Shown here: one piece after another, positions 30,430-59,873 of the stretch
Layout: every line of letters starts with the position of its first letter
Numbering within the stretch: the stretch's first letter is position 1
NCBI GenBank assembly: GCA_049322655.1
Contig: JBMORP010000006.1
Coordinates: 128,410 to 192,409, forward strand
Length of the DNA: 64,000 nt
DNA from: Patescibacteria group bacterium
GTDB lineage: Bacteria > Patescibacteriota > Microgenomatia > UBA1400 > PJMF01
Reading direction: 5' to 3'
Position numbers and translations under genes: made by a program
Notes under the pieces: model-generated
Databases searched by the model: none
What the model saw: the letters and a program-made list of their open reading frames with translations, nothing else
Told to the model about the DNA's origin: nothing

Positions 30430-32196
30430 CTACATTTCCTCTGGGGTTTGAATTCCCAACAAGGATAAGCCATACTCCAAAGTATTAGCTGTTGCTTGAG
30501 TTAAGACACAACGTCTTTCTCTGGCATCTGAGTTTTCAGCATTAATAATTTGATGAGTATTGTAAAAACCATTAAATCTTTGAGCCAATTCAAACAAAAA
30601 ACTCGCTAATTGATGAGGAGCAAACTCTGTCAATGCTTTTTCCACCGCTTCTTCAAATCTATCCAAATGTCTGGCCAAACCAAGCTCAACGTCATCCATT
30701 TTCCAAGAATCATCTCCAAACCCTGGAGAAAACTCTTCCAGAGCGGCTTTTTTCAAAACACTTTTGGCCCGCACTGCGGCATACTGAACATAAGGACCGG
30801 CATTACCTTTCATACTCAAAATCTCATCCCAGTCAAAAACAATATCGCGGTTACTTTCACTTTTTAGATCATTCCATTTCAAAGCGCCAATTGCTACTAC
30901 ATGAGCAATACTTTGATTATTATCAGCCAAACCTTCGGCTCTTTTTTTGGCCTCAGCAATTACATCTTCCAACCAAATAACATTGCCTTTTCTTGTTGAC
31001 ATTTTCTTGTCTTTAAAACGATATAAACCATGTTTAACATGAACTCTTTGCCCCTCATGGAACCAACCCATGATTTTTTCAACTTCATAGAGCTGCTGAA
31101 AATAAAGGCTTTGTTCTGCTCCAACTTCATTCACGATTAAATTTGGTTGGTCATAATGATGAAGTCTGAAATAATCAGTGGCAAAATCACGAGTCGAATA
31201 AAGTGTCGCTCCATCTTTTTTCAACACCATCAAGGGTGGCAACTTATCATTTTCAAAAAAGATTAACTTGGCACCATCATTCCCTTCGCCATAGTGAGCG
31301 CCGTGTTCTTGAGCCTTTTCTGGAGTCAACTTTTCAGCCAGTAGCTTTACTACTGCCTCCATTTTATCTTCAAAAAATGACTCACCATAACCTCGACCAT
31401 TATTTTCTGAAAAAGAAATGCCCAACTCACCATAAATACCCTGAAACTCCTTCCAAGATAACTCAACGCACCATTGCCACAGTTTTCTAGCCTCTGGCTC
31501 ATCTTCTTCAAGTTTTTTAAACCAAGCCCTACCAGCATTTTCTATTTCTGGCTCTAACTCCGCTTGTTGATGAAACTTAACGTAAAGCTCCACCAATTCT
31601 TTAATCGGTCGAGCCGCTTGAGCGATTTTTTCTTGGTCTCCCCAGGTTTTAATTGCATAAATTAACTTACCAAACTGAGTTCCCCAATCGCCCAAATGAT
31701 TATCACGAAAAACCTGCCAGCCACTGGCTTCATAGATATTAGCAATCGCATCACCTATAATCGTTGATCTGAGATGACCAATCGTAAATGGTTTAGCAAT
31801 ATTGGGTGATGAATATTCAATGATGGCTTTTTTATTTTTATTTTTTGCTTTGAGATTAGTTAATAAATCTATTTGCTTTTCTTCAGCCATTCTAATGATT
31901 TTTGTTCGGAAATATTCTCTAGCCAGTTTAAAGTTAATAAAACCAGGACCAGCAATTTCCACTGCCCAGATCTCTGGTTTGTTGGCAGTAAAATCTTGCA
32001 GCTCTTCAACAATTTTTTCGGCTAAAGCACGAGGATTTTTAAAAGTTGGTAAGTGCTTGATGTACTGTAAAGCTACATTGGTGCTCCAATCACCTCTCGT
32101 TTCATCGGCTGGATGTTCCAAAGTTACTTGTGGATCAGCTACCCCCAAAGTTTGCAGAACTTGAAGCAATTGTTGTTTGAGTGAATCAATAAGCAT
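30430..32196 (-). CDS. argS: Arginine--tRNA ligase
   Basis: Class I HIGH region PFTIGHLRSTIIGDAIANI; anticodon-binding C-terminus; 588 aa. Confidence 0.9.
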   Translation of the reverse strand: MLIDSLKQQLLQVLQTLGVADPQVTLEHPADETRGDWSTNVALQYIKHLPTFKNPRALAEKIVEELQDFTANKPEIWAVEIAGPGFINFKLAREYFRTKIIRMAEEKQIDLLTNLKAKNKNKKAIIEYSSPNIAKPFTIGHLRSTIIGDAIANIYEASGWQVFRDNHLGDWGTQFGKLIYAIKTWGDQEKIAQAARPIKELVELYVKFHQQAELEPEIENAGRAWFKKLEEDEPEARKLWQWCVELSWKEFQGIYGELGISFSENNGRGYGESFFEDKMEAVVKLLAEKLTPEKAQEHGAHYGEGNDGAKLIFFENDKLPPLMVLKKDGATLYSTRDFATDYFRLHHYDQPNLIVNEVGAEQSLYFQQLYEVEKIMGWFHEGQRVHVKHGLYRFKDKKMSTRKGNVIWLEDVIAEAKKRAEGLADNNQSIAHVVAIGALKWNDLKSESNRDIVFDWDEILSMKGNAGPYVQYAAVRAKSVLKKAALEEFSPGFGDDSWKMDDVELGLARHLDRFEEAVEKALTEFAPHQLASFLFELAQRFNGFYNTHQIINAENSDARERRCVLTQATANTLEYGLSLLGIQTPEEM

Positions 32197-42447: not shown

Positions 42448-42459
42448 TACAATTACTTT

Positions 42460-44513
42460 TGGTGAACAATTTTTATAGTTTTCTCGACTGGCAATTTTGG
42501 TTATATGGGTGGTGGTTTTTGCTTGCCTTTACTATTTCAGTCATTCCTGCTGGGTGGTTATTAGTGAAACAAACTCAATTAAAGAATATTTATAAAATAT
42601 TGCTCACCCCTGTCTTTGGCATGGTCGCTTGGACCCTCCAAGGCTATATTTTTGGGTTTTTTAATTTAAGATTTTTAAGTTTTTTTTATTTGGGCTTTTC
42701 TCTTTATTATTTTTTTAAATTATTTTTTTCTGCAAACAAAAACTTTTTTAATTTTGGTGAAAAATTAATCACAACCATTAAAGAAACTTTTAGTTTTTTC
42801 CCCAAAAAAGCTCTTTGGCTGATTGGTCTTGGTTCAATCTTACAACTACTAGCTGTTTTCCCTTCAGGAATAAGATATCCAGCTGGCATCACTTTTTATT
42901 GGCTCAATGCCTATGATGGCATCCTCCATCTAACTTTTATTAAAGAACTGGTTAGACATTTTCCCCCGTATCAACCAGGAGCCTACAATTTATTTGTTAC
43001 CAATTACCATTATTTATCAGATTTATTATTAGCTGAGTTAGTTAGGGTCTGGCATTTGCCGATTAGCCACCTTTTTTTTCATTACTTTCCCCTTTTATTT
43101 ACACCTTTATTGGGAGTGATTACTTATTTACTGGTATTCAAATGGACAAAATCAAAAACCGCCGCTTTCTGGTCCACTTTTTTTCATTATTTTGCCGGAG
43201 ATATGTTCTATGTTTTCTCTTTACTTTTTCATAGCAATCTTGGTAGCCACACCGATACTTTGGATAATGGCATTATTCAGTTGCTCAATATGCCTCAAGC
43301 TTTTGCCAAATTAATTTTTTTGGGTGGGTTAATTTTTTTTGATCAGTGGGTAAAGAAAAAAGATAAAACAAGTGGGGTACTTGCCATTGTTTCTTTAGCC
43401 AGTGTCGTTGGCTTTAAAGTTTATTTTGGGCTAGCTGCAGCTTTGGGCTTGACTCTTTATGTGGGTCTAGAACTCATTAAGGAAATTCCTCAACTAAGCA
43501 AAAACAACTTCTCAACTTGGAAAAAAACTTGGCTGAAACATCAGGAAAAAATTTTCTTCATGTTTTTATTTGCTTTGATCAGTGCAGTAATTTTTTTCCC
43601 AGTTAATAGTCACTCTGGTGGGTTGTTTTGGGCACCACTCGAATGGCCTAAGTTACTCTTAAGTTTTGATAAATTAAACTGGAATGAATGGTGGTTAAGG
43701 TTACAAGTTTATCAAGCTACACAAAACCTTAGAGCTTTGCTAGTGTGGTATAGCTTAGCTGTAGTTATTTTCATTGTGGCCACTTTTGGCACTAGATTGA
43801 TTGGCTTACTATTTCCTAGACATCTATTCGCAAAAATCCAAAGTCATAATTTTATTTTTCTTTATCCCACTATTTTTATCTTTAGTTTTATCGGAATGAA
43901 TTTTTTGCAAAGTTCTGGTCTGCATAACGTTTTTAACTTTTTTGTCGTTGCTTTAAGTTTTTTAACTCTTTTTTCAGGAGTTATCTTGGATCATCCGCTT
44001 CTAAAAAATAATTTTAGGAAAAGCTTGATTTTATTGGTAGTTATTTTCACTCTACCGAGAGTCTTACTTACCAGTTATTTTTATCTGTTTTCAATCTATC
44101 AAGGTTTTGAAAGAAAAATCATTTCTCCAGCTCAAGAAATAGCCCTTAATTATCTAGATAATGCAGAAAAAGTCAGATTAATTCAAACTCACCCCAATAA
44201 CCATTTGGATAATTTTGCGCCTTACACCTACTTATTCACTAAACATTACTCCTACTTTGGTGGCCGAGGCATTTTAGCTAGTCACAATCAACCAATCCAA
44301 AAAAGGCAAGAAGTTGTTAAAAAAATGTTTTCAACAAAAGATTTAAGAACCTTTGAGACTTTAGCTAGAGAAAATGCCATCTCTCATGTTATTTTTGAAA
44401 AGAAAGAAAACGTCCAAACCCCTTTCATCCCACTCAAAAATGCCTGTTTGGAGAATATAGCGATTGTCTTTGAAAACGAAGAAATTTTAATTATTAAAAT
44501 CTTGACTAATTAG
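42460..44513 (+). CDS. Polytopic membrane protein with a C-terminal soluble domain, YfhO-like / GT-C candidate
   Basis: About 14 TM helices; loop WLNAYDGILHLTFIKELVRHFPPYQPG resembles the D-x-H...R loop of 23668-25308 and 49610-51397; the upstream-most codon is TTG, so the true start is uncertain. Confidence 0.35.
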
Positions 44514-44816
44514 TCTTCGTTTTTATGAAACTTTTTTCTCTTTTCAGCCCTCATCGATCTATCTCTTCTTCTTAAATGCCGATCACTATCATGACGTAGT
44601 AAAGATTTAAATAAAATCGTAAGTAAACCTTCCTTACCATATTCACCAATTAACTGTTCATCAGTCTTTTTCTCAAGTAAAGTTCGACTAAGTGATCTTT
44701 TCTCTTTCATAAAAAAACAGATTATAACAAAATTACTCAAAAAACTGAAAAAATATAAAAATACCTGTTTACAAAACTTGAAACTTTGGCTTATTCTAGA
44801 AGAAGGAAGTTTCCTT

Positions 44817-45674
44817 ATGATCAATATTTCTAGTTCTAATCCTCAACCTGCAGTTGCCCCTCCACCTCAAGCTACCTCTCAGCCAAGCCCTGATTTAGCT
44901 ACTCAAACTCCCCAGCAACCAGCCCCTCAAGAAAATAAAAATACTCGCTACTTTATTATTGGTGGCGTTATCTTGGCTATTTTGGCCATCGGTGGTTTGG
45001 CTAGTTTATTTTTAGTTCAAGAACCACAAGAAATTAGACAACAAGCCGCTCAATGTGTCGAACAATGTCCTGGTAATGATGGAGTTCTAAGAAACTGTAC
45101 CCCACCAGAAGATGATGGATCAGCTGCCGAAAGCATCTGTAATGTCAAAGGTAGAGTTGAAGCCTGTGGTGGTAAAAACTACTGTTGTCCTGCTCCTGGT
45201 GGAACTTGGACAACTAACATGACTGCTTGTGCTACTCCTACTCCAGAACCAAGTCCAACTGAAGAGCCTGGTTTATGTTCCTCTGATTCTGTCGCTGATT
45301 GTCGAACTGCTGATCCAGGAGATTATTGTAATAATGGCGCTGGTGAATGTACTGTTAGTGGTTCAAAGGGAGCTGATGGTAAAGATGTCTGTACTTGTGC
45401 CGATGATCCAGAGCCAACTGCAACTCCAACTACTACACCCACAAGCGCACCAACCACTGCTCCAACTACTACGGCGCCTACAAACGCACCAACCACTGCT
45501 CCAACTAATGCACCAACTACTGCTCCAACTACTACTGCTCAAGCTACCACAGTGCCAACTCAACCACCCCTTCCTTCTGAGTTACCAGAAACAGGACCTG
45601 AAGATTGGTTGAAAAATCTCTCTATAGGACTAGGAGCACTCGGTGTTGGTGCCTTACTTTTCCTCTTCTTATAA
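44817..45674 (+). CDS. Secreted or anchored Cys-rich surface protein with a Thr/Pro/Ala-rich linker and a C-terminal LPETG plus hydrophobic segment (sortase-signal-like)
   Basis: ATG at 44817 preceded by GAAGGAAG; N-terminal Pro/Gln-rich region then a 23-aa hydrophobic helix; a 16-Cys domain; PTTAPTTTAPTNAPTTAPTNAPTTAPTTT repeats; ends LPETGPEDWLKNLSIGLGALGVGALLFLFL-stop. Confidence 0.55.
   Translation: MINISSSNPQPAVAPPPQATSQPSPDLATQTPQQPAPQENKNTRYFIIGGVILAILAIGGLASLFLVQEPQEIRQQAAQCVEQCPGNDGVLRNCTPPEDDGSAAESICNVKGRVEACGGKNYCCPAPGGTWTTNMTACATPTPEPSPTEEPGLCSSDSVADCRTADPGDYCNNGAGECTVSGSKGADGKDVCTCADDPEPTATPTTTPTSAPTTAPTTTAPTNAPTTAPTNAPTTAPTTTAQATTVPTQPPLPSELPETGPEDWLKNLSIGLGALGVGALLFLFL
45421..45545 (+). 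repeat. Imperfect tandem repeat of about 27-30 nt (acaa[g/a]cgcaccaaccactgctccaacta...) encoding the (A/N)PTTAPTT linker
   Basis: Direct reading shows three to four near-identical units in head-to-tail order inside the CDS at 44817-45674. Confidence 0.6.
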
Positions 45675-45698: not shown

Positions 45699-46826
45699 GT
45701 GATTGAAATTTTTAAGGCAAAAAGGATCCAAACCATAATTACCTGGGTAGTTGCTTCGTTAATCACTCTATTGGTTTTCTTCCGCTATCAGACTCAATTT
45801 ACTGAACTAACTGATATGGATATTTATGCAGAAAAATATGCTCATTCGCAATATGTTTTGGGAGAAGGCTCACCACAAAAAATAGATGATGCTTCACTCT
45901 ATATTTATGCTGGGTTTGCCTATGCTAGAGGTGAAGATCCTACTACCATCAATTTTGAGCATCCTCCTTTGACTAAGTATTTACTTGGTTTATCTTACCG
46001 GCTGTTTCATAACTCAGTTGTCTTAAATTTGCCTTTATTCTTCATCTCTTTATTATGTGTTTTCTACTTAACCAAGACTATTACGCAAAACTATTGGTTG
46101 GGTTTGACCGGGATGGTAATTGTTGGTAATTTGCAGATTTTACAAGAGCATGTGTCTCAAGCATTGATGGATTTTCCTCAACTCACTTTAACACTGTTAT
46201 TTTTTTCTGTTTTATTTTCCAAGTTAAAATACAAATACTTACTAACGGGACTCGTCTTAGGTGGATTACTTGCCATCAAATACCAAATTCCAATGATTTT
46301 CTTATACCTTTTTATACTGCTCATCTGGGCTGTTACAGAAAAAAAACTAAAAGATTGGCTGTTAGCTTTACCCATTATGTTGGGGGTATATTTAATCAAC
46401 TACCTTGTTTACTTTATGAATGGTCACGATTTAATTGACTTTATTAAGTTTGAGTGGTTCCGTTTTCGTTGGTTTACTGGAGACAGAACTATGCCCAAGT
46501 TTTTGATTTGGCAAACCTTATTCACCGGATCTTTTAAAGCTTGGTGGGCTGCTGAGACATACCTAAAAGAACCTAGCTGGAGCATTTTTTGGCCAGTGAG
46601 CTTTGTCACTCATCTTTTTTCATTAGCTTTTTGGCAAAAATTCGATAAAAAAATCTTAACTTTAGTTTTTTATGCTACCGCAACACTCATCGTCTTCTCG
46701 GTTGGTTCAGCTGCTTATGCCAGGTATCTGCTCCAGTTATTACCTTTTTGGATCATCATTAGTATCTGGTTTATTCAAAGAAGCTACCTAACTTTGGGCA
46801 TGTTTTCTGCAAAAAATTCTGCCTGA
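45699..46826 (+). CDS. PMT_2-like (GT39-like) membrane glycosyltransferase, short form
   Basis: GTG start after AAGGAAAG; loop IDDASLYIYAGFAYARGEDPTTINFEHPPLTKYLLGLS carries the HPPL-K signature of the protein-mannosyltransferase family; about 9 TM helices. Confidence 0.5.
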   Translation: MIEIFKAKRIQTIITWVVASLITLLVFFRYQTQFTELTDMDIYAEKYAHSQYVLGEGSPQKIDDASLYIYAGFAYARGEDPTTINFEHPPLTKYLLGLSYRLFHNSVVLNLPLFFISLLCVFYLTKTITQNYWLGLTGMVIVGNLQILQEHVSQALMDFPQLTLTLLFFSVLFSKLKYKYLLTGLVLGGLLAIKYQIPMIFLYLFILLIWAVTEKKLKDWLLALPIMLGVYLINYLVYFMNGHDLIDFIKFEWFRFRWFTGDRTMPKFLIWQTLFTGSFKAWWAAETYLKEPSWSIFWPVSFVTHLFSLAFWQKFDKKILTLVFYATATLIVFSVGSAAYARYLLQLLPFWIIISIWFIQRSYLTLGMFSAKNSA

Positions 46827-48118
46827 TCCCAATAGCTTTGCTGATCAAAAGTTAAGGTTACTATCACATTAGTAATGATCAATAAACCCAAAATCAAAAT
46901 GTAAGTGAGTTTGGCTAGTTTTTTAAAATTCAAGCTTTGAAATAACACAGGCACAAAACCCAACGAAATAACCCCTCTCAATTGCCATAAAGATAATTCT
47001 AAACCACTCACTAAGTTGAAAAGTGGCAACAGTAGTAACCACTGCAAACCAGCTAGCAAAAACAAATTTTTTTCCAAAATAAGCTTAATTAATTCAACAA
47101 GACTAATAATTAAAAGTGGCCAAAGTAAATAATCATACCAACCATGAAAAGTCGTTGCTCCAACTGTAAACAAAATAAAAACTAGGTTTAATAATACGGC
47201 TATTTTTAAAAATAAATATTTTTTATCCTCACGCCCAAACAATAAAATTGCTGCAAATAAACCCAAAATTTTCCAGCCATCAAAAAGCAGGTGTCTAATA
47301 ACAGTCGGATGTAAAAACAACCGATTTTGCAGGGTTACCAGGCCCAGATCTCGATTTGATTGAGCAGAAAGTAGTTGTAAAAACAAAGGAAAATCATAAA
47401 TAGCTCCATAAACCACAAACAAGCCGGTTCCTAATAATAAACTACCTAAACTAACTCTAAATAATCGCCAATTTCTTTCCATAAAAGCTACCGCTAACAC
47501 TGAAAGTGGTATTACCAAGCCAGCGGCTTTGGTTAAAATCGAGGCTGCACCCACCCAAAAAATTACTTGCCAACTCCATTTTTTATCTAAATTTAATAAA
47601 GCCCAAAAACTCAAAATTAACCACGTTACTAATAAGTTTTCAGCTACCACCAACCGACTGCCAAAAATTAGAGTTGGAATAGTCATAAACAACAGCGTCG
47701 CTAAAACAACCCAAGTCTTTTTTTTGAAAAATTTAGTAGCCAATAACCAAAATAAGCCAACATTAATCGCGCCCAAAAACACCATTGGCAATCTAATTAA
47801 CTTAGCTGAAGGTAAATCTAACCAATGATTTTTGAGTGAGTGAGCCAAGCCTGGCAATAAAGAAAAAAGCGGTGGATGATCAAAGACCGGTCTAACAATC
47901 GGCGCATCATAAACTCCAGTTCGGTAAACATAACCATTCTGATAGGCTGGGAAGTAGGACCAAGAAGCTGGCCATCTTTCTTGAATTAAACTAGCTCCTA
48001 AGTGTGTCCAGGCCCCTTCATCAGCTGTTTCACCAAAAACTGGGAACAAATAATAATCATTAAACCTTAATAAAAAACCACCAATTATCACAAGTAAACC
48101 AATTAAAAGTTTTTTCAT
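46784..48118 (-). CDS. PMT_2-like (GT39-like) membrane glycosyltransferase
   Basis: ETADEGAWTHLGASL (DE motif) ...YDAPIVRPVFDHPPLFSLLPG (HPPL); start at ATG 48118 (MKKLLIG); multi-TM. Confidence 0.5.
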   Translation of the reverse strand: MKKLLIGLLVIIGGFLLRFNDYYLFPVFGETADEGAWTHLGASLIQERWPASWSYFPAYQNGYVYRTGVYDAPIVRPVFDHPPLFSLLPGLAHSLKNHWLDLPSAKLIRLPMVFLGAINVGLFWLLATKFFKKKTWVVLATLLFMTIPTLIFGSRLVVAENLLVTWLILSFWALLNLDKKWSWQVIFWVGAASILTKAAGLVIPLSVLAVAFMERNWRLFRVSLGSLLLGTGLFVVYGAIYDFPLFLQLLSAQSNRDLGLVTLQNRLFLHPTVIRHLLFDGWKILGLFAAILLFGREDKKYLFLKIAVLLNLVFILFTVGATTFHGWYDYLLWPLLIISLVELIKLILEKNLFLLAGLQWLLLLPLFNLVSGLELSLWQLRGVISLGFVPVLFQSLNFKKLAKLTYILILGLLIITNVIVTLTFDQQSYWDQAEFFAENMPKVR

Positions 48119-48119
48119 T

Positions 48120-49613
48120 TTATTTTTTAAGTAAGTTTTTAAATTCAAGTACAATCTTTTTTCTACCGACCACAAAAATACCAATTAGATAAGCCAAAGA
48201 ACTAATCAACATCCCCAGAAGCAAATGTTTCAAACTTACAGACCAATAATTAAGTCCTAACAACCCAATAGTTACCATTAAGCCAGCCCCAAAGCCAGCT
48301 TCCTTGATTTGAGGCAGCACTTCAACTGGCAGATATTTTTTGACCATTTTGATAGAAAACAGTGAAGTAAAAGAAATTATAAAAGCAGCTAAGGCCACCC
48401 CATTAAACCCAAACAACCAAATAAAAATTGGTGTTAAAATCCAAGTTAAAGTAGTCCACATAATCATTAGTTTCAAAGTCTGATTAATATGACCAATCGC
48501 ATTGAGAGTATTTACCAATGGAGTAGTCAAAGCAGCCCAACCAATACTCAAAGCAAACATAATAAAACTAAAAATGGCTGGTTCCCATTTGGCATATTCT
48601 TCAATTACTTGAGTTAATGGCCAAATGAAAACACTCATCCCAATTAAAATCGGAAAAATTGCTAAAGAAATAAAGAAAATTGATTTTTCAATCGCCTTTT
48701 TGAGCAAATCTTGGCGGTGTTGTAACCGAGAATAAGTGGGGAAGGTAATTGCCATTACATTCTGTACTGTTAAATTATATGGATACATAGACCAATTTTT
48801 TGACCACTGAATATAACCAAATTGATCTAATGGCAGAAAAACACCCAAACCAAGATAAAACAGTTGATCTTTAATCCTGGCCAAAAAATCATTGAGCTGA
48901 AATTTTAAGCCAAAGTTCAACATTGATTTGAGAATTTTGTTATTCCACATAAAACCAATTCCTTGCCATGGCTCAATCAACCACATGGCTATTACTCCCA
49001 CCACAGATCTGGCAATAATCGCATAAGCATAAGCCATCACCCCCATACCCCGCCAAGCCAAAACAATTAGTAAACTATAGAAAACTGACTGTTCAAAAAT
49101 TTGTGGTAAAACTAGTTTCTGAAAAAGTAATTTTCTTTCTAAACGAATAGATGAAACTGTTTTTAAAGTGGCTAAAGGAAAAGAAATTGCCAAACTCAAC
49201 AATACCCATACCCCAGCATCACCAACTTTTTGTTGTATAAAACCAAAACTTAGTAGCAGTAAAATCACCCCTACAATCAACCAAGATAGAAGCCATTGCA
49301 AAGTAAAAGCCACTTGGTACGCATGGTTGTCTGGATCTTGTTTTTGCTGAACCAAGGCAGCCGCCAAACCAATATCAGAAAAGAAAATTAACAGACCAAT
49401 AATTTGAGTGACAAAACCATAAACTCCGAAATCACTAGGAGAGAAAAAAGCACTGAGAATAAAAGCAGCCACTAAACCAATCGTTTGTAAGAAAGCTGTG
49501 CGAAAAAAATAAGAAATCACCCCAGAAACAGATTTTTTCTTGATCTCAACAACCTCATCATCCATTAGCTCTTCAATTTCGTCTGTAGTATCAACAACTG
49601 TTTGATTAATCAT
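48120..49613 (-). CDS. wzx: Wzx-like oligosaccharide flippase (MOP superfamily, polysaccharide biosynthesis protein)
   Basis: SGVISYFFRTAFLQTIGLVAAFILSAFFSPSDFGVYGFVTQIIGLLIFFSDIGLAAALVQ N-terminal region typical of Wzx/RfbX; about 12-14 TM helices; 497 aa. Confidence 0.6.
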   Translation of the reverse strand: MINQTVVDTTDEIEELMDDEVVEIKKKSVSGVISYFFRTAFLQTIGLVAAFILSAFFSPSDFGVYGFVTQIIGLLIFFSDIGLAAALVQQKQDPDNHAYQVAFTLQWLLSWLIVGVILLLLSFGFIQQKVGDAGVWVLLSLAISFPLATLKTVSSIRLERKLLFQKLVLPQIFEQSVFYSLLIVLAWRGMGVMAYAYAIIARSVVGVIAMWLIEPWQGIGFMWNNKILKSMLNFGLKFQLNDFLARIKDQLFYLGLGVFLPLDQFGYIQWSKNWSMYPYNLTVQNVMAITFPTYSRLQHRQDLLKKAIEKSIFFISLAIFPILIGMSVFIWPLTQVIEEYAKWEPAIFSFIMFALSIGWAALTTPLVNTLNAIGHINQTLKLMIMWTTLTWILTPIFIWLFGFNGVALAAFIISFTSLFSIKMVKKYLPVEVLPQIKEAGFGAGLMVTIGLLGLNYWSVSLKHLLLGMLISSLAYLIGIFVVGRKKIVLEFKNLLKK

Positions 49614-51397
49614 GATTCAATTTTTAATTGTTTACTAAGAGTTTTTTTGGGCCAAACCAAGTAAATGAAGCTCAACCAAGCCAATAAACTCACGATGTCT
49701 GCCCAATTTCTTAAGCTAGTTCCTATAAATTTCAGGCTAACCAAGTGATTACCAGCAGGTATATTTAATAAAATATTACCATTTTCTGCTCGATCTTTAC
49801 TCCACCACTGACCGTCTATTTCTGCTGTCCAGCCAGGATAATTAGCAACCGCCAACTCCACAGCTTGAGCTTGACTAAAATTGGTTTTAATCAGTTTTTC
49901 ATGAGTTCTATCGGCTAAAATCTCTACTTCATCAGCTTGATATTGGCTCATCACCAAACTGGTGGGAATGATAGTTGGTTTTTCAACCATATCCGCAGAA
50001 ATATAATCAGGCAAAATACTACTTAATTCACGTCTAATTCTAGTCTGATCAGTATAGTAATAATCATTAGCATTAGTTAAATACTCTTCTGGCCTAAAAT
50101 AAATTGCACCACTAAAGACCGTTATCACTACCAATATACCCACCAACCAACCTCTAATAATCTTGTTACTAATTAACCAAACTAAACTAGCTAATAATAA
50201 AGCAAAGAAAACAATCGCTACTCCCAGCCATCTCCAAGGAAACTGAATAAATTTGAATAAACTAATTTGTTCCCAAATAAATTGAGTTTTAAGTAAACTC
50301 ATTAACGTAGTTAAAACAAATAAACCTGCTAATAAACTACTAAAAAACAAAATTCTTGGCGTAATAATTTTTTCTTTTTTAAAGCATTGTTTAAATAAAC
50401 TCACTAACCAAAAAACTACTAATAAACCTAGTGAAATGAGTTGTCCCCAACCCAAAAAGAAAGAAATACCATCATTAGCACCCCATTCACTACCACCATA
50501 ACCCCAATTGGGTTTAAAAAATTGGCGAATGTACAAAAAATGCAAATGGTAATCAAAATATGGTGTCAAAATAATTTTTTCTACTTGAGTGAAGTTTTTT
50601 TCAACAAAAGCTGGAATTAAATAAAAGCTAGCAGCCATAACAGCCAAGAAACCACTGCCAATTAATTGACTCCAGATTCGTAAAAAATTCTTAGCCCTAA
50701 ATCGATTTTTTCTAAAAATTTCTGGAGCCTGCTGCCAAACCATCCAAGCAAAATAACCTCCAGCAAAAACTCCTAAAATAGGCAAAAAAATCATCGTGGT
50801 AATGTTGTGTGACAGAAATAAACCAACTAAAGCTAAGAAAAAGATTTTCCAACCCTGTTTTTCTTGATGAAAAATCTTAATTAAACCTAATAAAATCCAT
50901 GGCAAAAACATCATCCCCCAAGCTTCATTCAAAGCCCCTCTGGCAAATAAATTCATTGCCCGATATGGAGCCAAAGTCAAAAAAACCGTAGTTAATAGGC
51001 CCCCTAATTGGCCAAACAACCGTTTCCCCAAAAAGTAACTACCCAAAAGAGTTCCTAGGTTGGATAACAAATATAAAAACTTAATACTACTGATAATATT
51101 GCCAAAAACTAAATAAAAACTTGCCCCAAAGTAAAAGGGCAACGGACCATAAAACTCAAATAAAGGCATTCCGTAACCATATCCAAAGTTGCTCGTCCAC
51201 CTCACTGGAAAATGGCCATCTTGTAAAGCCCTAGCCATTTCAACAATCCTTCCAGCATGAGTAAAATCATGAACTCGAAAAAACTGATCAGTCACTAACA
51301 AAGACCAAGAAGAGGCCAAAAAAATTAGTAACAAAAAAGACAAAACAAACCACTGTTTGAGTTTCTGCACAGCACTATTGTAGCCTAAGATTGACAA
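49610..51397 (-). CDS. Polytopic membrane protein, YfhO-like / GT-C candidate
   Basis: Loop VHDFTHAGRIVEMARALQDGHFPVRWTSNFGYGYGMP parallels the THDGENHLARF...PPRF loop of 23668-25308; the start codon may be TTG or GTG. Confidence 0.4.
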   Translation of the reverse strand: MSILGYNSAVQKLKQWFVLSFLLLIFLASSWSLLVTDQFFRVHDFTHAGRIVEMARALQDGHFPVRWTSNFGYGYGMPLFEFYGPLPFYFGASFYLVFGNIISSIKFLYLLSNLGTLLGSYFLGKRLFGQLGGLLTTVFLTLAPYRAMNLFARGALNEAWGMMFLPWILLGLIKIFHQEKQGWKIFFLALVGLFLSHNITTMIFLPILGVFAGGYFAWMVWQQAPEIFRKNRFRAKNFLRIWSQLIGSGFLAVMAASFYLIPAFVEKNFTQVEKIILTPYFDYHLHFLYIRQFFKPNWGYGGSEWGANDGISFFLGWGQLISLGLLVVFWLVSLFKQCFKKEKIITPRILFFSSLLAGLFVLTTLMSLLKTQFIWEQISLFKFIQFPWRWLGVAIVFFALLLASLVWLISNKIIRGWLVGILVVITVFSGAIYFRPEEYLTNANDYYYTDQTRIRRELSSILPDYISADMVEKPTIIPTSLVMSQYQADEVEILADRTHEKLIKTNFSQAQAVELAVANYPGWTAEIDGQWWSKDRAENGNILLNIPAGNHLVSLKFIGTSLRNWADIVSLLAWLSFIYLVWPKKTLSKQLKIES

Positions 51398-51438: not shown

Positions 51439-52575
51439 ATGAAAAAAGAGTTACCAATTACCGAACCACCTTCCCAACAACCAAAAACTCAACAAGATTC
51501 TCAATATTCAAACAACTTATTTAAACTATTTATTAAGGTAAATTTATTATCTTTGTTCTTTGCAAGTTTAATGTTACTAATTACTGCCCTGGGAGTTGGA
51601 GTTTGGGGTTACACAAAATTTCAAAAATTTTCTCAAACTGCTGGGGTAAGTTTCTCTGAGTTAAAAACTTCTTTTACAAGCGGTTGGCAACAGGAACCTC
51701 TGGCAACTAATGGCTACAAAAATTTTCTGTTACTAGGCGTCGATTCCCTATCAGGCAGAGGAGATGTCCCTCCATTAACTGACACAATGATGCTGGTTTC
51801 ACTAAATCTAGATACTGGCAAAATCATCACCCTACCCTTTCCCAGAGATTTATGGTCAGAAAAATATAAAACTAAAATTAACGCTCTTTATTATTATGGC
51901 TTTGATCGTTATCCAGTTAATCCAGCTAGATTTGTTGAAGAAACTTTGGAAGAACTAACTGCAGTCACTATTCATCACACTATAGTGTTATCTTTGGACC
52001 AACTAGAAGAATTAATCGATTTAGTTGGTGGAGTTAATCTTGATATTCCACTTGGTTTTGTAGATGAAAAATTCCCCAGACCTGGAGTTGATGTCACTAT
52101 AGAACGAGATCCCAAAATCCTTTACCAAACCATCTCTTTTGAGCCAGGCCAACAAACCTTAACTGGTGAAAAAGCTCTTCAATATATTCGAAGCAGACAC
52201 AGTGAAGGAGATGCAGGTACAGATCTAGCCAGGGGTGAAAGACAACAACTAGTAATCAAAGCTCTTTTTTCTCAGCTAATGGAACCCAAACAATATCTAG
52301 AAAATCCAGCTTTGGCTGGTCAACTTTATAAATTTTACGAACAAAATTTCGCCGAAGTACTCCCTTTAACAGAACTAATTGCCACAGGCAAGAAACTGGC
52401 ACCAATCAGAGCTGAGATAACAATTGCTGGCCACCAACTTTCAACCACCAAAGACGACCCTAAGACAGGAGTTTTGGCCAACCCTAAGCCTTCTTATCTT
52501 TACCAAAATCAGTGGGTCTATGTAATCACTGACGAAGAATTATTTAAACAGGAAATTAGTAATCTTTTTCAATAA
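51439..52575 (+). CDS. LytR-CpsA-Psr (LCP) family phosphotransferase
   Basis: N-terminal TM anchor; NFLLLGVDSLSGRGDVPPLTDTMMLVSLNLDTGKIITLPFPRD and YIRSRHSEGDAGTDLARGERQQ are core LCP motifs. Confidence 0.8.
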   Translation: MKKELPITEPPSQQPKTQQDSQYSNNLFKLFIKVNLLSLFFASLMLLITALGVGVWGYTKFQKFSQTAGVSFSELKTSFTSGWQQEPLATNGYKNFLLLGVDSLSGRGDVPPLTDTMMLVSLNLDTGKIITLPFPRDLWSEKYKTKINALYYYGFDRYPVNPARFVEETLEELTAVTIHHTIVLSLDQLEELIDLVGGVNLDIPLGFVDEKFPRPGVDVTIERDPKILYQTISFEPGQQTLTGEKALQYIRSRHSEGDAGTDLARGERQQLVIKALFSQLMEPKQYLENPALAGQLYKFYEQNFAEVLPLTELIATGKKLAPIRAEITIAGHQLSTTKDDPKTGVLANPKPSYLYQNQWVYVITDEELFKQEISNLFQ

Positions 52576-58688: not shown

Positions 58689-59873
58689 ATGTCCCTCAAA
58701 AAAGCTTTTGTTATTATTCCCACTTATAATGAAAAAGATAATATTGAGAAAACCTTATCTTTAGTCTTCGATTCACTAAAAAAAGTAACTAATTGGCAAA
58801 CTGGAGTATTAGTAGTTGATGATACTTCTCCAGACAAAACCTATGAATTAGTGAAAAAACTTCAAAAAAAATTTGTCGGCTTAGAGTTACTAATTAATGA
58901 AAAAAAAGCCGGTCTAGGTGGTGCCTATTTAAAAGGCATGGACTATGCTTTTAATCAACTCAAAGCCGATCTGGTTTTTGAGTTTGATGCTGACTTATCT
59001 CACGATCCAGAAAAATTACCCCTCTTTTTTGAGAAAATTGACCAAGGTTATGACATGGTCCTTGGCTCCAGGTATATTCCTGGTGGTAGTATCCCCACTG
59101 ATTGGGGCTTTCATCGTAAATTTTTAAGTATCGTGGGTAATATCGTTATTATGACTATTCTCACTAATTTTTCTATCAGAGATTGGACCACTGGTTATCG
59201 AGCAATTACTAAGAAAGTTTGGCAGGCTGTTCATCAAGAACTAACTGGAGAAAGATTTTCTGGGTACACTTTTCAGATTGGCTTTCTTCATAAAACAATT
59301 AAAAAAGGTTTTTCTATTGCTGAAGTACCATTTCACTTCAAAGATAGAACTTTTGGTAAAAGTAAAATAGGACCTGAGTATATTAAAAATACTCTGGAAT
59401 ACATTATGAAAGTGAGAATTAAAGATCTCTTAAAAAATAGAATTTTCAGGTTTGTGATTGTTGGTGGAATCGGGGCTTCAACTCAATTAGTTCTAGCCAA
59501 TATTTTACCTAGCTTAATATCTTTTCGTAGCTTTCCTTGGAATATTATTCCTGACTTTTTGGCCATCGAGGCAGCGGTGTTAACTAACTTTATTCTTAGT
59601 AACCTCTGGACTTTTTCCGATAGAAAATTAAATCCCAAACAATATCTACCTAAATTCTTGGCATTCAATCTTGCTTCTGGTGGCTCGATTTTAATTCAAA
59701 CTATCATTATTGGTTCAGGCATAGCGATTTTTGGCTTAAAAGACATTTTATTACTCCCAATAGTAAACATCATGTTAAATTCAAGAACTATTTTCCATAT
59801 GACCGGTATTTTAATCGGCATGTTTTGGAACTTTTTTGCCTACAACACTTTTATTTGGAAAAAGAAAAAGTAA
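58689..59873 (+). CDS. GT2 polyprenyl-phosphate sugar synthase (DPM1/GtrB-like) fused to a C-terminal GtrA-like four-TM domain
   Basis: FVIIPTYNEKDNIEKTL...VLVVDDTSPDKT...FDADLSHDP, then RFVIVGGIGASTQLVLANIL and further helices as in the GtrA family. Confidence 0.7.
   Translation: MSLKKAFVIIPTYNEKDNIEKTLSLVFDSLKKVTNWQTGVLVVDDTSPDKTYELVKKLQKKFVGLELLINEKKAGLGGAYLKGMDYAFNQLKADLVFEFDADLSHDPEKLPLFFEKIDQGYDMVLGSRYIPGGSIPTDWGFHRKFLSIVGNIVIMTILTNFSIRDWTTGYRAITKKVWQAVHQELTGERFSGYTFQIGFLHKTIKKGFSIAEVPFHFKDRTFGKSKIGPEYIKNTLEYIMKVRIKDLLKNRIFRFVIVGGIGASTQLVLANILPSLISFRSFPWNIIPDFLAIEAAVLTNFILSNLWTFSDRKLNPKQYLPKFLAFNLASGGSILIQTIIIGSGIAIFGLKDILLLPIVNIMLNSRTIFHMTGILIGMFWNFFAYNTFIWKKKK

Follow-up and report, generated by a model that had tools for sequence, protein, structure and literature searches.

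The 64,000-nucleotide stretch of Patescibacteria DNA analysed here (contig JBMORP010000006.1; called the window below) is devoted to the synthesis of envelope glycans, and it contains a gene for a 285-amino-acid (aa) modular protein that ends in an LPETG motif and a hydrophobic segment. The reading that we favour, with moderate confidence, is that this focal protein is a lineage-specific surface protein of Candidatus Pacebacteria, whose envelope is Gram-positive-like, and that it is anchored by a sortase-type reaction and encoded within a wall-glycopolymer cluster. To judge from its relatives, the gene is a conserved gene of this group, which belongs to the candidate phyla radiation (CPR) and is of the Microgenomates type. 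The evidence consists of the anatomy of the protein, the conservation of both its termini throughout the family, the spacing of the motif, the mobility of the passenger domains, the synteny of the locus and the fold of a neighbouring glycosyltransferase of the GT-C type. From these features we infer Sec export, disulfide bonds, cleavage by a sortase and attachment to the wall.

The open reading frame (ORF) begins with the ATG at 44817, which is preceded by GAAGGAAG; the TTG at 44778 given in a mechanical ORF list is not the start, because every orthologue begins MIN(V/I). The 285 residues include 39 Pro, 39 Thr and 33 Ala. As an earlier note made from the letters of the window had stated, a Pro/Gln-rich N-terminus (residues 1-43) is followed by a 23-residue hydrophobic helix (residues 45-67), a mucin-like linker of Thr/Pro/Ala repeats occupies residues 198-248, and the protein closes with LPETG and a hydrophobic stretch that has no basic tail; all of this can be read in the translation. 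The same note described a single module of 16 Cys. The count is in fact 14, between residues 80 and 194, and these fall into two separately conserved modules of eight (module A) and six (module B).

The first 43 residues are presumed to be cytoplasmic, and the helix that follows them could serve as a signal anchor or could form the h-region of a signal peptide. LPETG occupies residues 256-260 (nucleotides 45582-45596) and leaves 25 residues to the C-terminus, namely PEDWLKN and 18 hydrophobic residues that end in LLFLFL, with no Lys or Arg before the stop. Hydropathy is 1.6-2.0 over residues 265-285, where the AlphaFold (AF2) model has a helix at 262-284; the model as a whole consists of two membrane helices, a confidently predicted module A and a disordered linker. 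At the DNA level the linker is built of 12-nucleotide and 24/39-nucleotide tandem repeats (45424-45547), and among orthologues it differs in both length and sequence. We read it as a probable stalk or wall-spanning segment and as a candidate region for O-glycosylation. A scan for promoters and terminators gave counts no higher than expected from shuffled sequence. At the level of sequence, the gene is confirmed as real and its architecture as beyond chance, since the same arrangement recurs in orthologues that are 48-94% identical and the distance from the motif to the end of the protein is fixed in 105 of 173 relatives.

Those relatives come from an exhaustive search with hidden Markov models (HMMs) of 1.84 billion representatives, which gave 757 matches at E<=1e-3 and 233 at E<=1e-10; the family counts in this study rest on 173 relatives among these matches, while a word-indexed search had returned 34. 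All relatives derive from metagenome-assembled genomes (MAGs) of Candidatus Pacebacteria or other Patescibacteria, and full-length orthologues, with modules A and B together, were found only in MAGs of the Pacebacteria type. Across the 173 proteins there are three separable conserved elements: the N-terminus, module A and the C-terminus. The focal protein itself matched nothing in Pfam and NCBIfam above threshold. Matches to GltJ, HemX and FliL were rejected as products of low complexity or transmembrane composition.

The C-terminal domain has the consensus QPxLPxxLPx[T/S/A]GP[E/A][D/N]Wxx[Y/W]LxxGLxxLGxGAxLLL[F/L]L and is carried by 46 of the 173 relatives, which are 205-1099 aa long and have different passengers; its LP, GP, W and three Gly positions are invariant in these 46. 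In an alignment of 17 family members the invariant residues are L252, P253, L256, P257, G260, P261, W264, L268, G271, L272, G276, G278, L283 and L285. More widely, 105 relatives have the pentapeptide [L/I/V]Px[T/S/A]G at a distance of exactly 24-26 residues from the C-terminus, with a hydrophobic tail behind it. Among these 105 there are four C-terminal sequence classes: LPxTGPEDW...LLLFL (class 1), [V/I]P[V/E]TGxSWPT...LAL (class 2), LPETGI(L/F)D(F/L)PG...LLAL (class 3) and LPxSGS(V/I)ETT...KYKN (class 4), the last of which, with five proteins, is the only class with a basic tail. Because the other 100 proteins have none, the missing tail is a habit of the lineage and no argument against sorting.

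The fixed distance, the pentapeptide shared by differing tails and the many passenger domains together indicate that the C-terminus behaves as a sorting signal, and they extend to the whole family what the earlier note had seen as the layout of such a signal in one protein. Several paralogues in a genome carry the same signal, as would be expected for substrates of one sorting enzyme. Among the curated sorting-domain models of NCBIfam, TIGR01167 (LPXTG_anchor) is the only one with any similarity to the focal protein or its relatives, matching 9 of the 34 relatives from the word-indexed search at E<=1 (best 0.0086). No CTERM model of the exosortase, archaeosortase or rhombosortase type matches the focal protein at E<=1, and CTERM sorting models (PEP-, PGF-, GlyGly-CTERM etc.) are absent from the 25 families matched by most of the 34 relatives. 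On sequence grounds, the C-terminus is best described as a lineage-typical variant of the LPXTG signal, in which the basic tail is missing and both a GPxDW extension and the helix are conserved.

At the other end of the protein, the motif Q[D/E]xR[Q/K]xA directly follows the N-terminal helix in most relatives, whatever the passenger domain. Q71, R74, Q75, Q76 and A77 are invariant in alignment A3, and within the window the motif stands behind a membrane helix in the focal protein only. By analogy with the logic of YSIRK, the motif may serve export or sorting specifically in this lineage. In the relatives examined (P0001-P0265) as in the focal protein, the motif does not fit the -3/-1 rule for signal peptidase.

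Between the two ends lie the Cys modules. Module A (consensus C.EQCPG.DGVLRNC.PPE.DG....S.CN..GR.E.CGG..YCCP..GG.WTT.MT.C) is a mobile unit of ~60 residues, found in one or two copies in proteins whose length varies from 75 aa (fragments) to over 800 aa; some of these proteins end in dockerin-like repeats and not in a membrane helix. Just ahead of its last Cys there is a semi-conserved (N/D)-M-(T/S). A word-indexed search with the module A profile gave one match among 59 candidates scored. Module B occurs alone in paralogues such as P0018. Since the modules are mobile, diverge fast and are sometimes paired with dockerin-like repeats, an adhesive or glycan-binding role is suggested for them. 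We rejected a pilin reading, there being no YPKN-like motif and no pilin or Cna match in Pfam/NCBIfam, and the model having small Cys modules and not Ig folds. Dockerin/cellulosome and S-layer readings were also rejected, as the focal protein contains no domains in support of them.

In the sequence of events that we propose, the N-terminal helix with its Q[D/E]xRxxA motif would take the protein through Sec, and the Pro/Gln-rich N-terminus would remain in the cytoplasm, at least initially. The eight- and six-Cys modules would fold outside the cell with disulfide bonds, the Thr/Pro/Ala repeat would form an extended stalk or span the wall, and the C-terminal helix would keep the precursor in the membrane. 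A sortase whose gene lies in another part of the genome would cleave LPET/G after the Thr, with QPPLPSELPETGPEDW as the putative recognised peptide, and would join the protein to peptidoglycan precursors. Glycosylation of the stalk, if any, would be carried out by the adjacent GT-C enzymes, which resemble protein O-mannosyltransferases (PMTs), or by a LytR-CpsA-Psr (LCP) protein that transfers the polymer of the cluster. Because the gene lies inside a conserved wall-glycopolymer cluster, the protein is probably produced with, and embedded in, the polymer layer. A sortase family has been described as "near ubiquitous in Microgenomates" (Méheust et al., PMC6744442), and a closed Microgenomates genome encodes a sortase (PMC7143001); an MdbA-like thiol-disulfide oxidoreductase with VKOR is enriched in CPR (PMC6744442). 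Given this near ubiquity, a housekeeping sortase encoded elsewhere in the genome is the most economical assumption.

The surroundings of the gene are well conserved. Full-length orthologues (48-68% identity) represent seven distinct lineages (the window and loci L002, L012/L025/L029, L014, L015/L030 and L028/L031), which share the order GT2 (glycosyltransferase family 2), GT-C, GT2, one or two variable polytopic genes, the focal gene, sometimes a gene for a 375-aa protein, a convergent gene for a 444-aa GT-C, Wzx, GT-C, LCP and epimerase. The least conserved products of this block are the focal protein (48-68% identity), the 444-aa GT-C (53-67%) and the LCP protein (61-68%), whereas GT2, Wzx and epimerase are 76-90% identical; paired identities for the focal and 444-aa proteins are 66/63, 68/67, 63/62, 52/57 and 48/53%. 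At L026 the block is intact without the focal gene, and a 448-aa enzyme, 50% identical to the 444-aa protein, stands directly beside a homologue of the 375-aa protein. Two more distant contexts of the 444-aa family (P0063, P0113) also have no neighbour of the focal type.

Paralogues occur in a different setting. MNZB01, CAYPPX01 and JABHWM01 have two to four each, which share both terminal elements with the focal protein, contain Thr/Pro/Ser linkers and stand in tandem arrays beside genes for MFP, ABC (ATP-binding cassette) and MacB/FtsX proteins and not beside GT-C genes; the arrays at L005, L006 and L010 are followed by such MFP, ABC and MacB/FtsX genes. Members of the arrays share the N-terminal helix (in most with Q[D/E]xRxxA), Cys modules, a PT/S linker and, in the main, the LPxxGPEDW C-terminal domain. 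In each array one member has, in place of the C-terminal signal, a conserved terminal domain that contains Cys. Beside the array at L010 (9372-9947, minus strand) a 191-aa protein is, by eye, a candidate signal peptidase of the SipW/Sec11 type (SESMKP...GDLVF...KGDANSDKD). Because the L026 block is intact without the focal gene, the distant contexts of the 444-aa family are without it and the paralogues lie elsewhere, the focal gene and a small basic ORF divergent from it have the look of an insertion specific to the clade, at a variable position in a wall-glycopolymer cluster that is itself conserved.

Both genes downstream of the focal gene had been described in the earlier note as carrying the HPPL signature of PMTs. 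The signature is indeed there, as FEHPPL in the 375-aa and FDHPPL in the 444-aa protein, and it occurs in no other GT-C-like protein tested in the window; a GT-C fold for the 444-aa protein and a distant kinship for the 375-aa protein have been added to it. A Pfam assignment has not followed, as neither protein matches PMT (PF02366) or PMT_2 (PF13231) even at E<=10, and searches of PDB sequences with the two family profiles gave no match. The 444-aa protein has 90 homologues, many with precomputed PF13231/PF02366 matches and the NCBI name 'glycosyltransferase family 39 protein', and in an alignment of 42 homologues D33, E34, H81, P82 and P83 are invariant and D80 and L84 are present in at least 90%.

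The AF2 model of the 444-aa protein (predicted local distance difference test, pLDDT, 93.8; predicted template modelling score, pTM, 0.93) was compared by Foldseek with solved structures, among which the best matches were ArnT (5f15), Pmt4 (9i5k) and STT3; PglB, AglB, ALG9 and EmbC were also matched, all at probability 1.00 and template modelling (TM) scores of ~0.5-0.6. The model thus depicts the protein as a minimal GT-C without a large outer domain, with acidic residues in its first extracytoplasmic loop. Since the fold matches GT-Cs acting on lipids, polysaccharides and proteins at similar scores, the class of acceptor cannot be read from it. By hhalign the 375-aa protein, which bears DD...NFEHPPLTKYLLG, aligns with the 444-aa family (probability 77.5%, E 1.9e-5) and appears to be a distant relative of this GT-C. 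The acidic pair and HPPL loop resemble loop 1 of PMTs. Membership of the flanking genes in the PMT family is only partly demonstrable.

There are several observations that weigh against the sortase reading. The protein has no positively charged tail, by which classical sorting signals are in part defined; TIGR01167 scores the focal protein at 13.5 bits, below its cutoff of 15.9, and Gram_pos_anchor (PF00746) does not match it at E<=0.01. The membrane helix is itself highly conserved, with Gly at -14, -9 and -7 in the 46 relatives, unlike in classical signals, and could therefore be a permanent, interacting membrane anchor. The N-terminus, too, may stay anchored, because the hydrophobic stretch behind its 44-residue leader is long (23 residues) and the next motif misfits the -3/-1 rule. 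Within the window there is no TLxTC motif in any real ORF and no Sortase match in Pfam, in agreement with the earlier note, and there is no sortase gene within 10 kb of ~35 loci with family members. Module A has no match in Pfam, NCBIfam or the PDB that would point to a ligand or function of the Cys modules. (A search for TLxTC-type motifs in every ORF of the window and of 41 loci gave matches only within Cys-rich surface proteins or spurious ORFs, and these were rejected.) Several of these features might be expected if the protein were no sortase substrate at all and were either processed by an unknown enzyme other than a sortase or held permanently at both ends, its termini in the cytoplasm and its ectodomain looped outside, with the conserved GxGxxGxG glycine zipper making the C-terminal helix a functional transmembrane interaction module. 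Across the 46 relatives there is little or no variation at G-14, L-13, G-9 and G-7, whereas classical sortase signals have variable helices, and the N-terminal helix is long enough for a stable anchor. However, it is hard to see why a plain anchor should keep LPx[T/S/A]G unchanged, and its distance from the end fixed, in four differing C-terminal classes, one of which retains a basic tail (KYKN). A helix at the very C-terminus without charged residues is, moreover, a weak stop-transfer anchor, and both the near ubiquity of sortase in Microgenomates and the lack of a match to every exosortase-, archaeosortase- and rhombosortase-type CTERM model speak against this alternative, which we consider unlikely. 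A bolder proposal would join the N-terminal helix and Q[D/E]xRxxA with the QPxLPxxLPx[T/S]GPxDW glycine-zipper helix, which has no basic tail, into a Microgenomates-specific two-ended sorting system, in which a dedicated sortase or other enzyme reads the helix, and which is coupled here to the wall-glycopolymer cluster, so that either LCP or a minimal PMT-like GT-C would add glycans to the stalk; as a whole, the proposal strikes us as improbable.

The stalk could be glycosylated by either of two routes. The first, proposed in outline by the earlier note, is a substrate-enzyme module, in which the 444-aa and/or 375-aa PMT-like GT-C would O-glycosylate the stalk on the outer face of the membrane from a polyprenyl-phosphate sugar. 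Thr/Pro/Ala repeats are typical sites of actinobacterial O-mannosylation, but Gram-positive surface proteins ordinarily span the wall with just such a Pro/Thr-rich segment upstream of LPXTG. Similarly, the fold of the 444-aa protein matches the protein-modifying Pmt4, STT3 and PglB, but it is equally close to ArnT, Emb and ALG9, which act on lipids or polysaccharides; and its relatives are named GT39 and match PF02366/PF13231, but the flanking proteins themselves match neither these models at E<=10 nor any PDB sequence. An HPPL loop after an acidic pair sets the two flanking genes apart from the other GT-C-like genes tested, and a candidate donor synthase, with GT2 and GtrA parts, is encoded within the window. 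The focal and 444-aa genes are adjacent in all seven lineages with an orthologue and diverge in parallel. This adjacency is partly to be expected, however, because there are about a dozen GT-C-like genes in 64 kb, and it may be merely inherited, because the whole block is syntenic in the clade; L026 keeps the pair of 448-aa and 375-aa genes and the cluster without the focal gene, the P0063 and P0113 contexts likewise do without it, and paralogues with the same linker and signal adjoin MacB-type ABC genes. We regard this route as a tentative proposal and a doubtful one. The other route has a precedent in LcpA, which glycosylates the sortase-anchored GspA and is encoded next to it (PMC6381275): the LCP protein would transfer the lipid-linked glycopolymer of the cluster to the focal protein, which a housekeeping sortase would then anchor. 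Synteny between the LCP and focal genes holds in every lineage checked, and a Wzx flippase and many GT2/GT4 genes are at hand for a lipid-linked polymer. Attachment of polymer to peptidoglycan is nevertheless the default role of LCP proteins, the LCP gene and the cluster persist at L026 without the focal gene, and nothing in the sequence separates this route from no glycosylation; we give it little credence. The evidence from context, although suggestive, is confounded by shared ancestry and by the density of GT-C genes, and glycosylation of the focal protein by GT-C or LCP is no more than plausible. Anchoring by a sortase-type reaction, with or without a glycosylated stalk, is the reading with which we proceed. 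Coordinates are collected in Table 1.

Table 1. Coordinates of the focal gene, the parts of its product, neighbouring features of the window and arrays of paralogues at other loci
Feature	Position	Strand	Description
Low-GC island	1-20.5 kb		~10 GT2, GT11, GT4, methyltransferases, DegT aminotransferase, ATP-grasp, Wzm/Wzt ABC exporter
684-aa polytopic membrane protein	42459-44513	+	variable spot upstream of the focal gene
66-aa strongly basic ORF	44510-44710	-	MKEKRSLSRTLLEKKTDEQLIGEYG...RHDSDRHLRRR; divergent from the focal gene
Focal gene	44817-45674	+	285-aa modular surface protein; basis: translation, orthologue alignment
Residues 1-43	44817-44945	+	Pro/Gln-rich, begins with conserved MIN(V/I); disordered in AF2 model
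Residues 45-67, N-terminal hydrophobic helix	44949-45017	+	23 residues; hydropathy >2; helix 43-78 in model
Residues 71-77, juxtamembrane motif	45027-45047	+	QEIRQQA, Q[D/E]xR[Q/K]xA; conserved in alignment
Residues 80-138, module A	45054-45230	+	8 Cys; alignments; pLDDT 82-96
Residues 154-194, module B	45276-45398	+	6 Cys; alignment; pLDDT 53-76
Residues 198-248, Thr/Pro/Ala repeat linker	45408-45560	+	includes PTATPTTTPTSAPTTAPTTTAPTNAPTTAPTNAPTTAPTTT; tandem repeats; disordered in model
Residues 249-285, C-terminal sorting-type domain	45561-45671	+	QPPLPSELPETG / PEDWLKNLSIGLGALGVGALLFLFL
375-aa polytopic protein	45699-46826	+	DD...FEHPPLTKYLLG loop; starts 24 nucleotides past the focal stop
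444-aa minimal GT-C (predicted)	46784-48118	-	ADE...FDHPPLF; convergent with the focal gene; conserved neighbour
Wzx-type polysaccharide flippase	48120-49613	-	PF13440, E 4e-43; syntenic
595-aa GT-C-like protein	49610-51397	-	sub-threshold PMT_2 and YfhO; orthologue with PF13231; syntenic
LCP glycopolymer phosphotransferase	51439-52575	+	PF03816, E 1.7e-28; syntenic
GT2 + GtrA-type protein	58689-59873	+	PF00535 + PF04138
Paralogue array, L005	6796-13769		
Paralogue array, L006	10001-16047		
Paralogue array, L010	10001-16105		
Paralogue arrays, L017-L019, L022, L023, L033, L036			

Within its stretch of the window, the focal gene is the only one that does not encode an enzyme, apart from the conserved 66-aa basic ORF. 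This small ORF is called in L001, L003 and L012 and conserved by tblastn, upstream of the orthologues, in L002, L012, L014 and L015; it is absent from L026, which has no focal gene, and matches no family. It thus appears, from its distribution, to travel with the focal gene. The 375-aa gene is probably co-transcribed with the focal gene, has orthologues only in L014 and L026, and overlaps the 444-aa gene convergently by 43 nucleotides at the 3' ends. Further downstream, the LCP gene that the earlier note had put about 5 kb away begins 5.8 kb from the focal gene. On the upstream side, the 684-aa protein has no Pfam or NCBIfam match and no relation by hhalign to the profile of the 444-aa family; in L002, L015, L025 and L028 its slot is held by other GT-C genes.

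As to the window as a whole, its GC content is 24-39%, with an island at 1-20500 of 24-29% against 35-39% elsewhere. The island holds a second glycan pathway, which depends on an ABC exporter and stands next to that of Wzx/LCP; the region may be variable or acquired. Beyond 20.5 kb there are epimerases and further GT2/GT4 genes. The window contains ~12 polytopic GT-C-like genes, which match PMT_2, AftD-like, MptA_B or PIG-V-like models, or are recognised by hhalign only. The protein with GT2 and GtrA parts is a candidate polyprenyl-phosphate-sugar synthase and a possible source of lipid-linked donor for the GT-C enzymes. N-glycosylation by an enzyme of the STT3/PglB type was considered and rejected, as the window has no WWD[Y/W/F]G motif. 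An arginyl-tRNA synthetase gene (30433-32196, minus strand) lies amid the glycosyltransferase cluster. The exact focal protein is also encoded on a contig of a Logan assembly (SRR32167788). Comparison with L001 and L013, from ~52800 onward, indicates that the window joins what this assembly has as two separate contigs: _27246, which ends near the LCP region, and _77671, which starts near the epimerases. The window is therefore taken to come from a less fragmented assembly of the same population or of one almost identical to it.

CPR bacteria (Patescibacteria) are thought to live attached to host cells, and their surface proteins are barely known. Since the basic tail is absent, signals of the present LPXTG type are missed by TIGR01167 and Pfam, and a dedicated HMM of the C-terminal domain would let annotators list likely wall-anchored proteins of Microgenomates. 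The locus also offers a mobile, confidently folding eight-Cys domain without a known relative and a conserved position within a wall-glycopolymer cluster. A glycosylated stalk, should there be one, would connect protein glycosylation in CPR with minimal GT-C enzymes or LCP. Two-ended sorting, if true, would offer a way of studying how the contact surface of these episymbionts is made and, together with glycosylation, would amount to the first pathway for sortase-anchored glycoproteins in CPR bacteria; if the protein is an ordinary sortase substrate only, it is one more hypothetical surface protein. We judge the finding to be of moderate interest, useful for the annotation of CPR surfaces and not surprising to a specialist.

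Finally, it is instructive to set the protein beside known systems, the nearest being the LPXTG proteins described by TIGR01167 and Gram_pos_anchor. Shared with these are an LPETG that stands some 25 residues before the C-terminus, between a Pro/Thr-rich segment and a hydrophobic one rich in Gly, Ala and Leu, and an N-terminal hydrophobic export signal, as well as several substrates per genome and a host group that encodes sortases. Unlike in classical signals, the motif is extended in the family by an invariant GP(E/A)(D/N)W and preceded, at a distance of four residues, by another LP; the helix is strongly conserved, and the fourth position is T, S or A; the focal protein also has no positive tail, falls below the model cutoff and has no adjacent sortase. 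Among the papers listed in a literature search, none combines LPXTG with the name of a CPR group.

At the N-terminus the closest analogy is with the YSIRK/GS signal peptide, which pairs with LPXTG in staphylococcal and streptococcal surface proteins. Here too an N-terminal motif co-occurs with the C-terminal signal on unrelated passengers, but Q[D/E]xR[Q/K]xA comes after and not before the hydrophobic core and misfits a signal-peptidase site. Substrates of PGF-CTERM/archaeosortase A, such as the haloarchaeal S-layer glycoprotein, have a Thr-rich O-glycosylated linker and then a motif and helix that are removed by a dedicated enzyme; the focal protein likewise has a Thr-rich linker directly before its motif and helix, although the motif is LPxTG and not PGF, there is no basic cluster and no archaeosortase/exosortase CTERM model matches.

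For the glycosylation step there are two possible parallels. In Actinobacteria, PMT/GT39 enzymes O-mannosylate Thr/Pro-rich secreted proteins, and the present locus has the corresponding Thr/Pro/Ala stretch, neighbouring GT-Cs with an acidic pair and HPPL, and a candidate polyprenyl-phosphate-sugar synthase nearby. Its GT-Cs differ in being minimal (375 and 444 aa), in failing the thresholds of Pfam PMT/PMT_2 and in matching ArnT, STT3, ALG9 and Emb as well as Pmt4. In Actinomyces oris, LcpA glycosylates GspA, SrtA then anchors it, and gspA is adjacent to lcpA (PMC6381275). At the focal locus the LCP gene is 5.8 kb away, with a flippase and two GT-C genes between, and the cluster also exists without the protein; the two are likened by gene layout and not by sequence, yet in both a protein with a sortase signal is encoded near an LCP gene, in or near genes for glycan synthesis.

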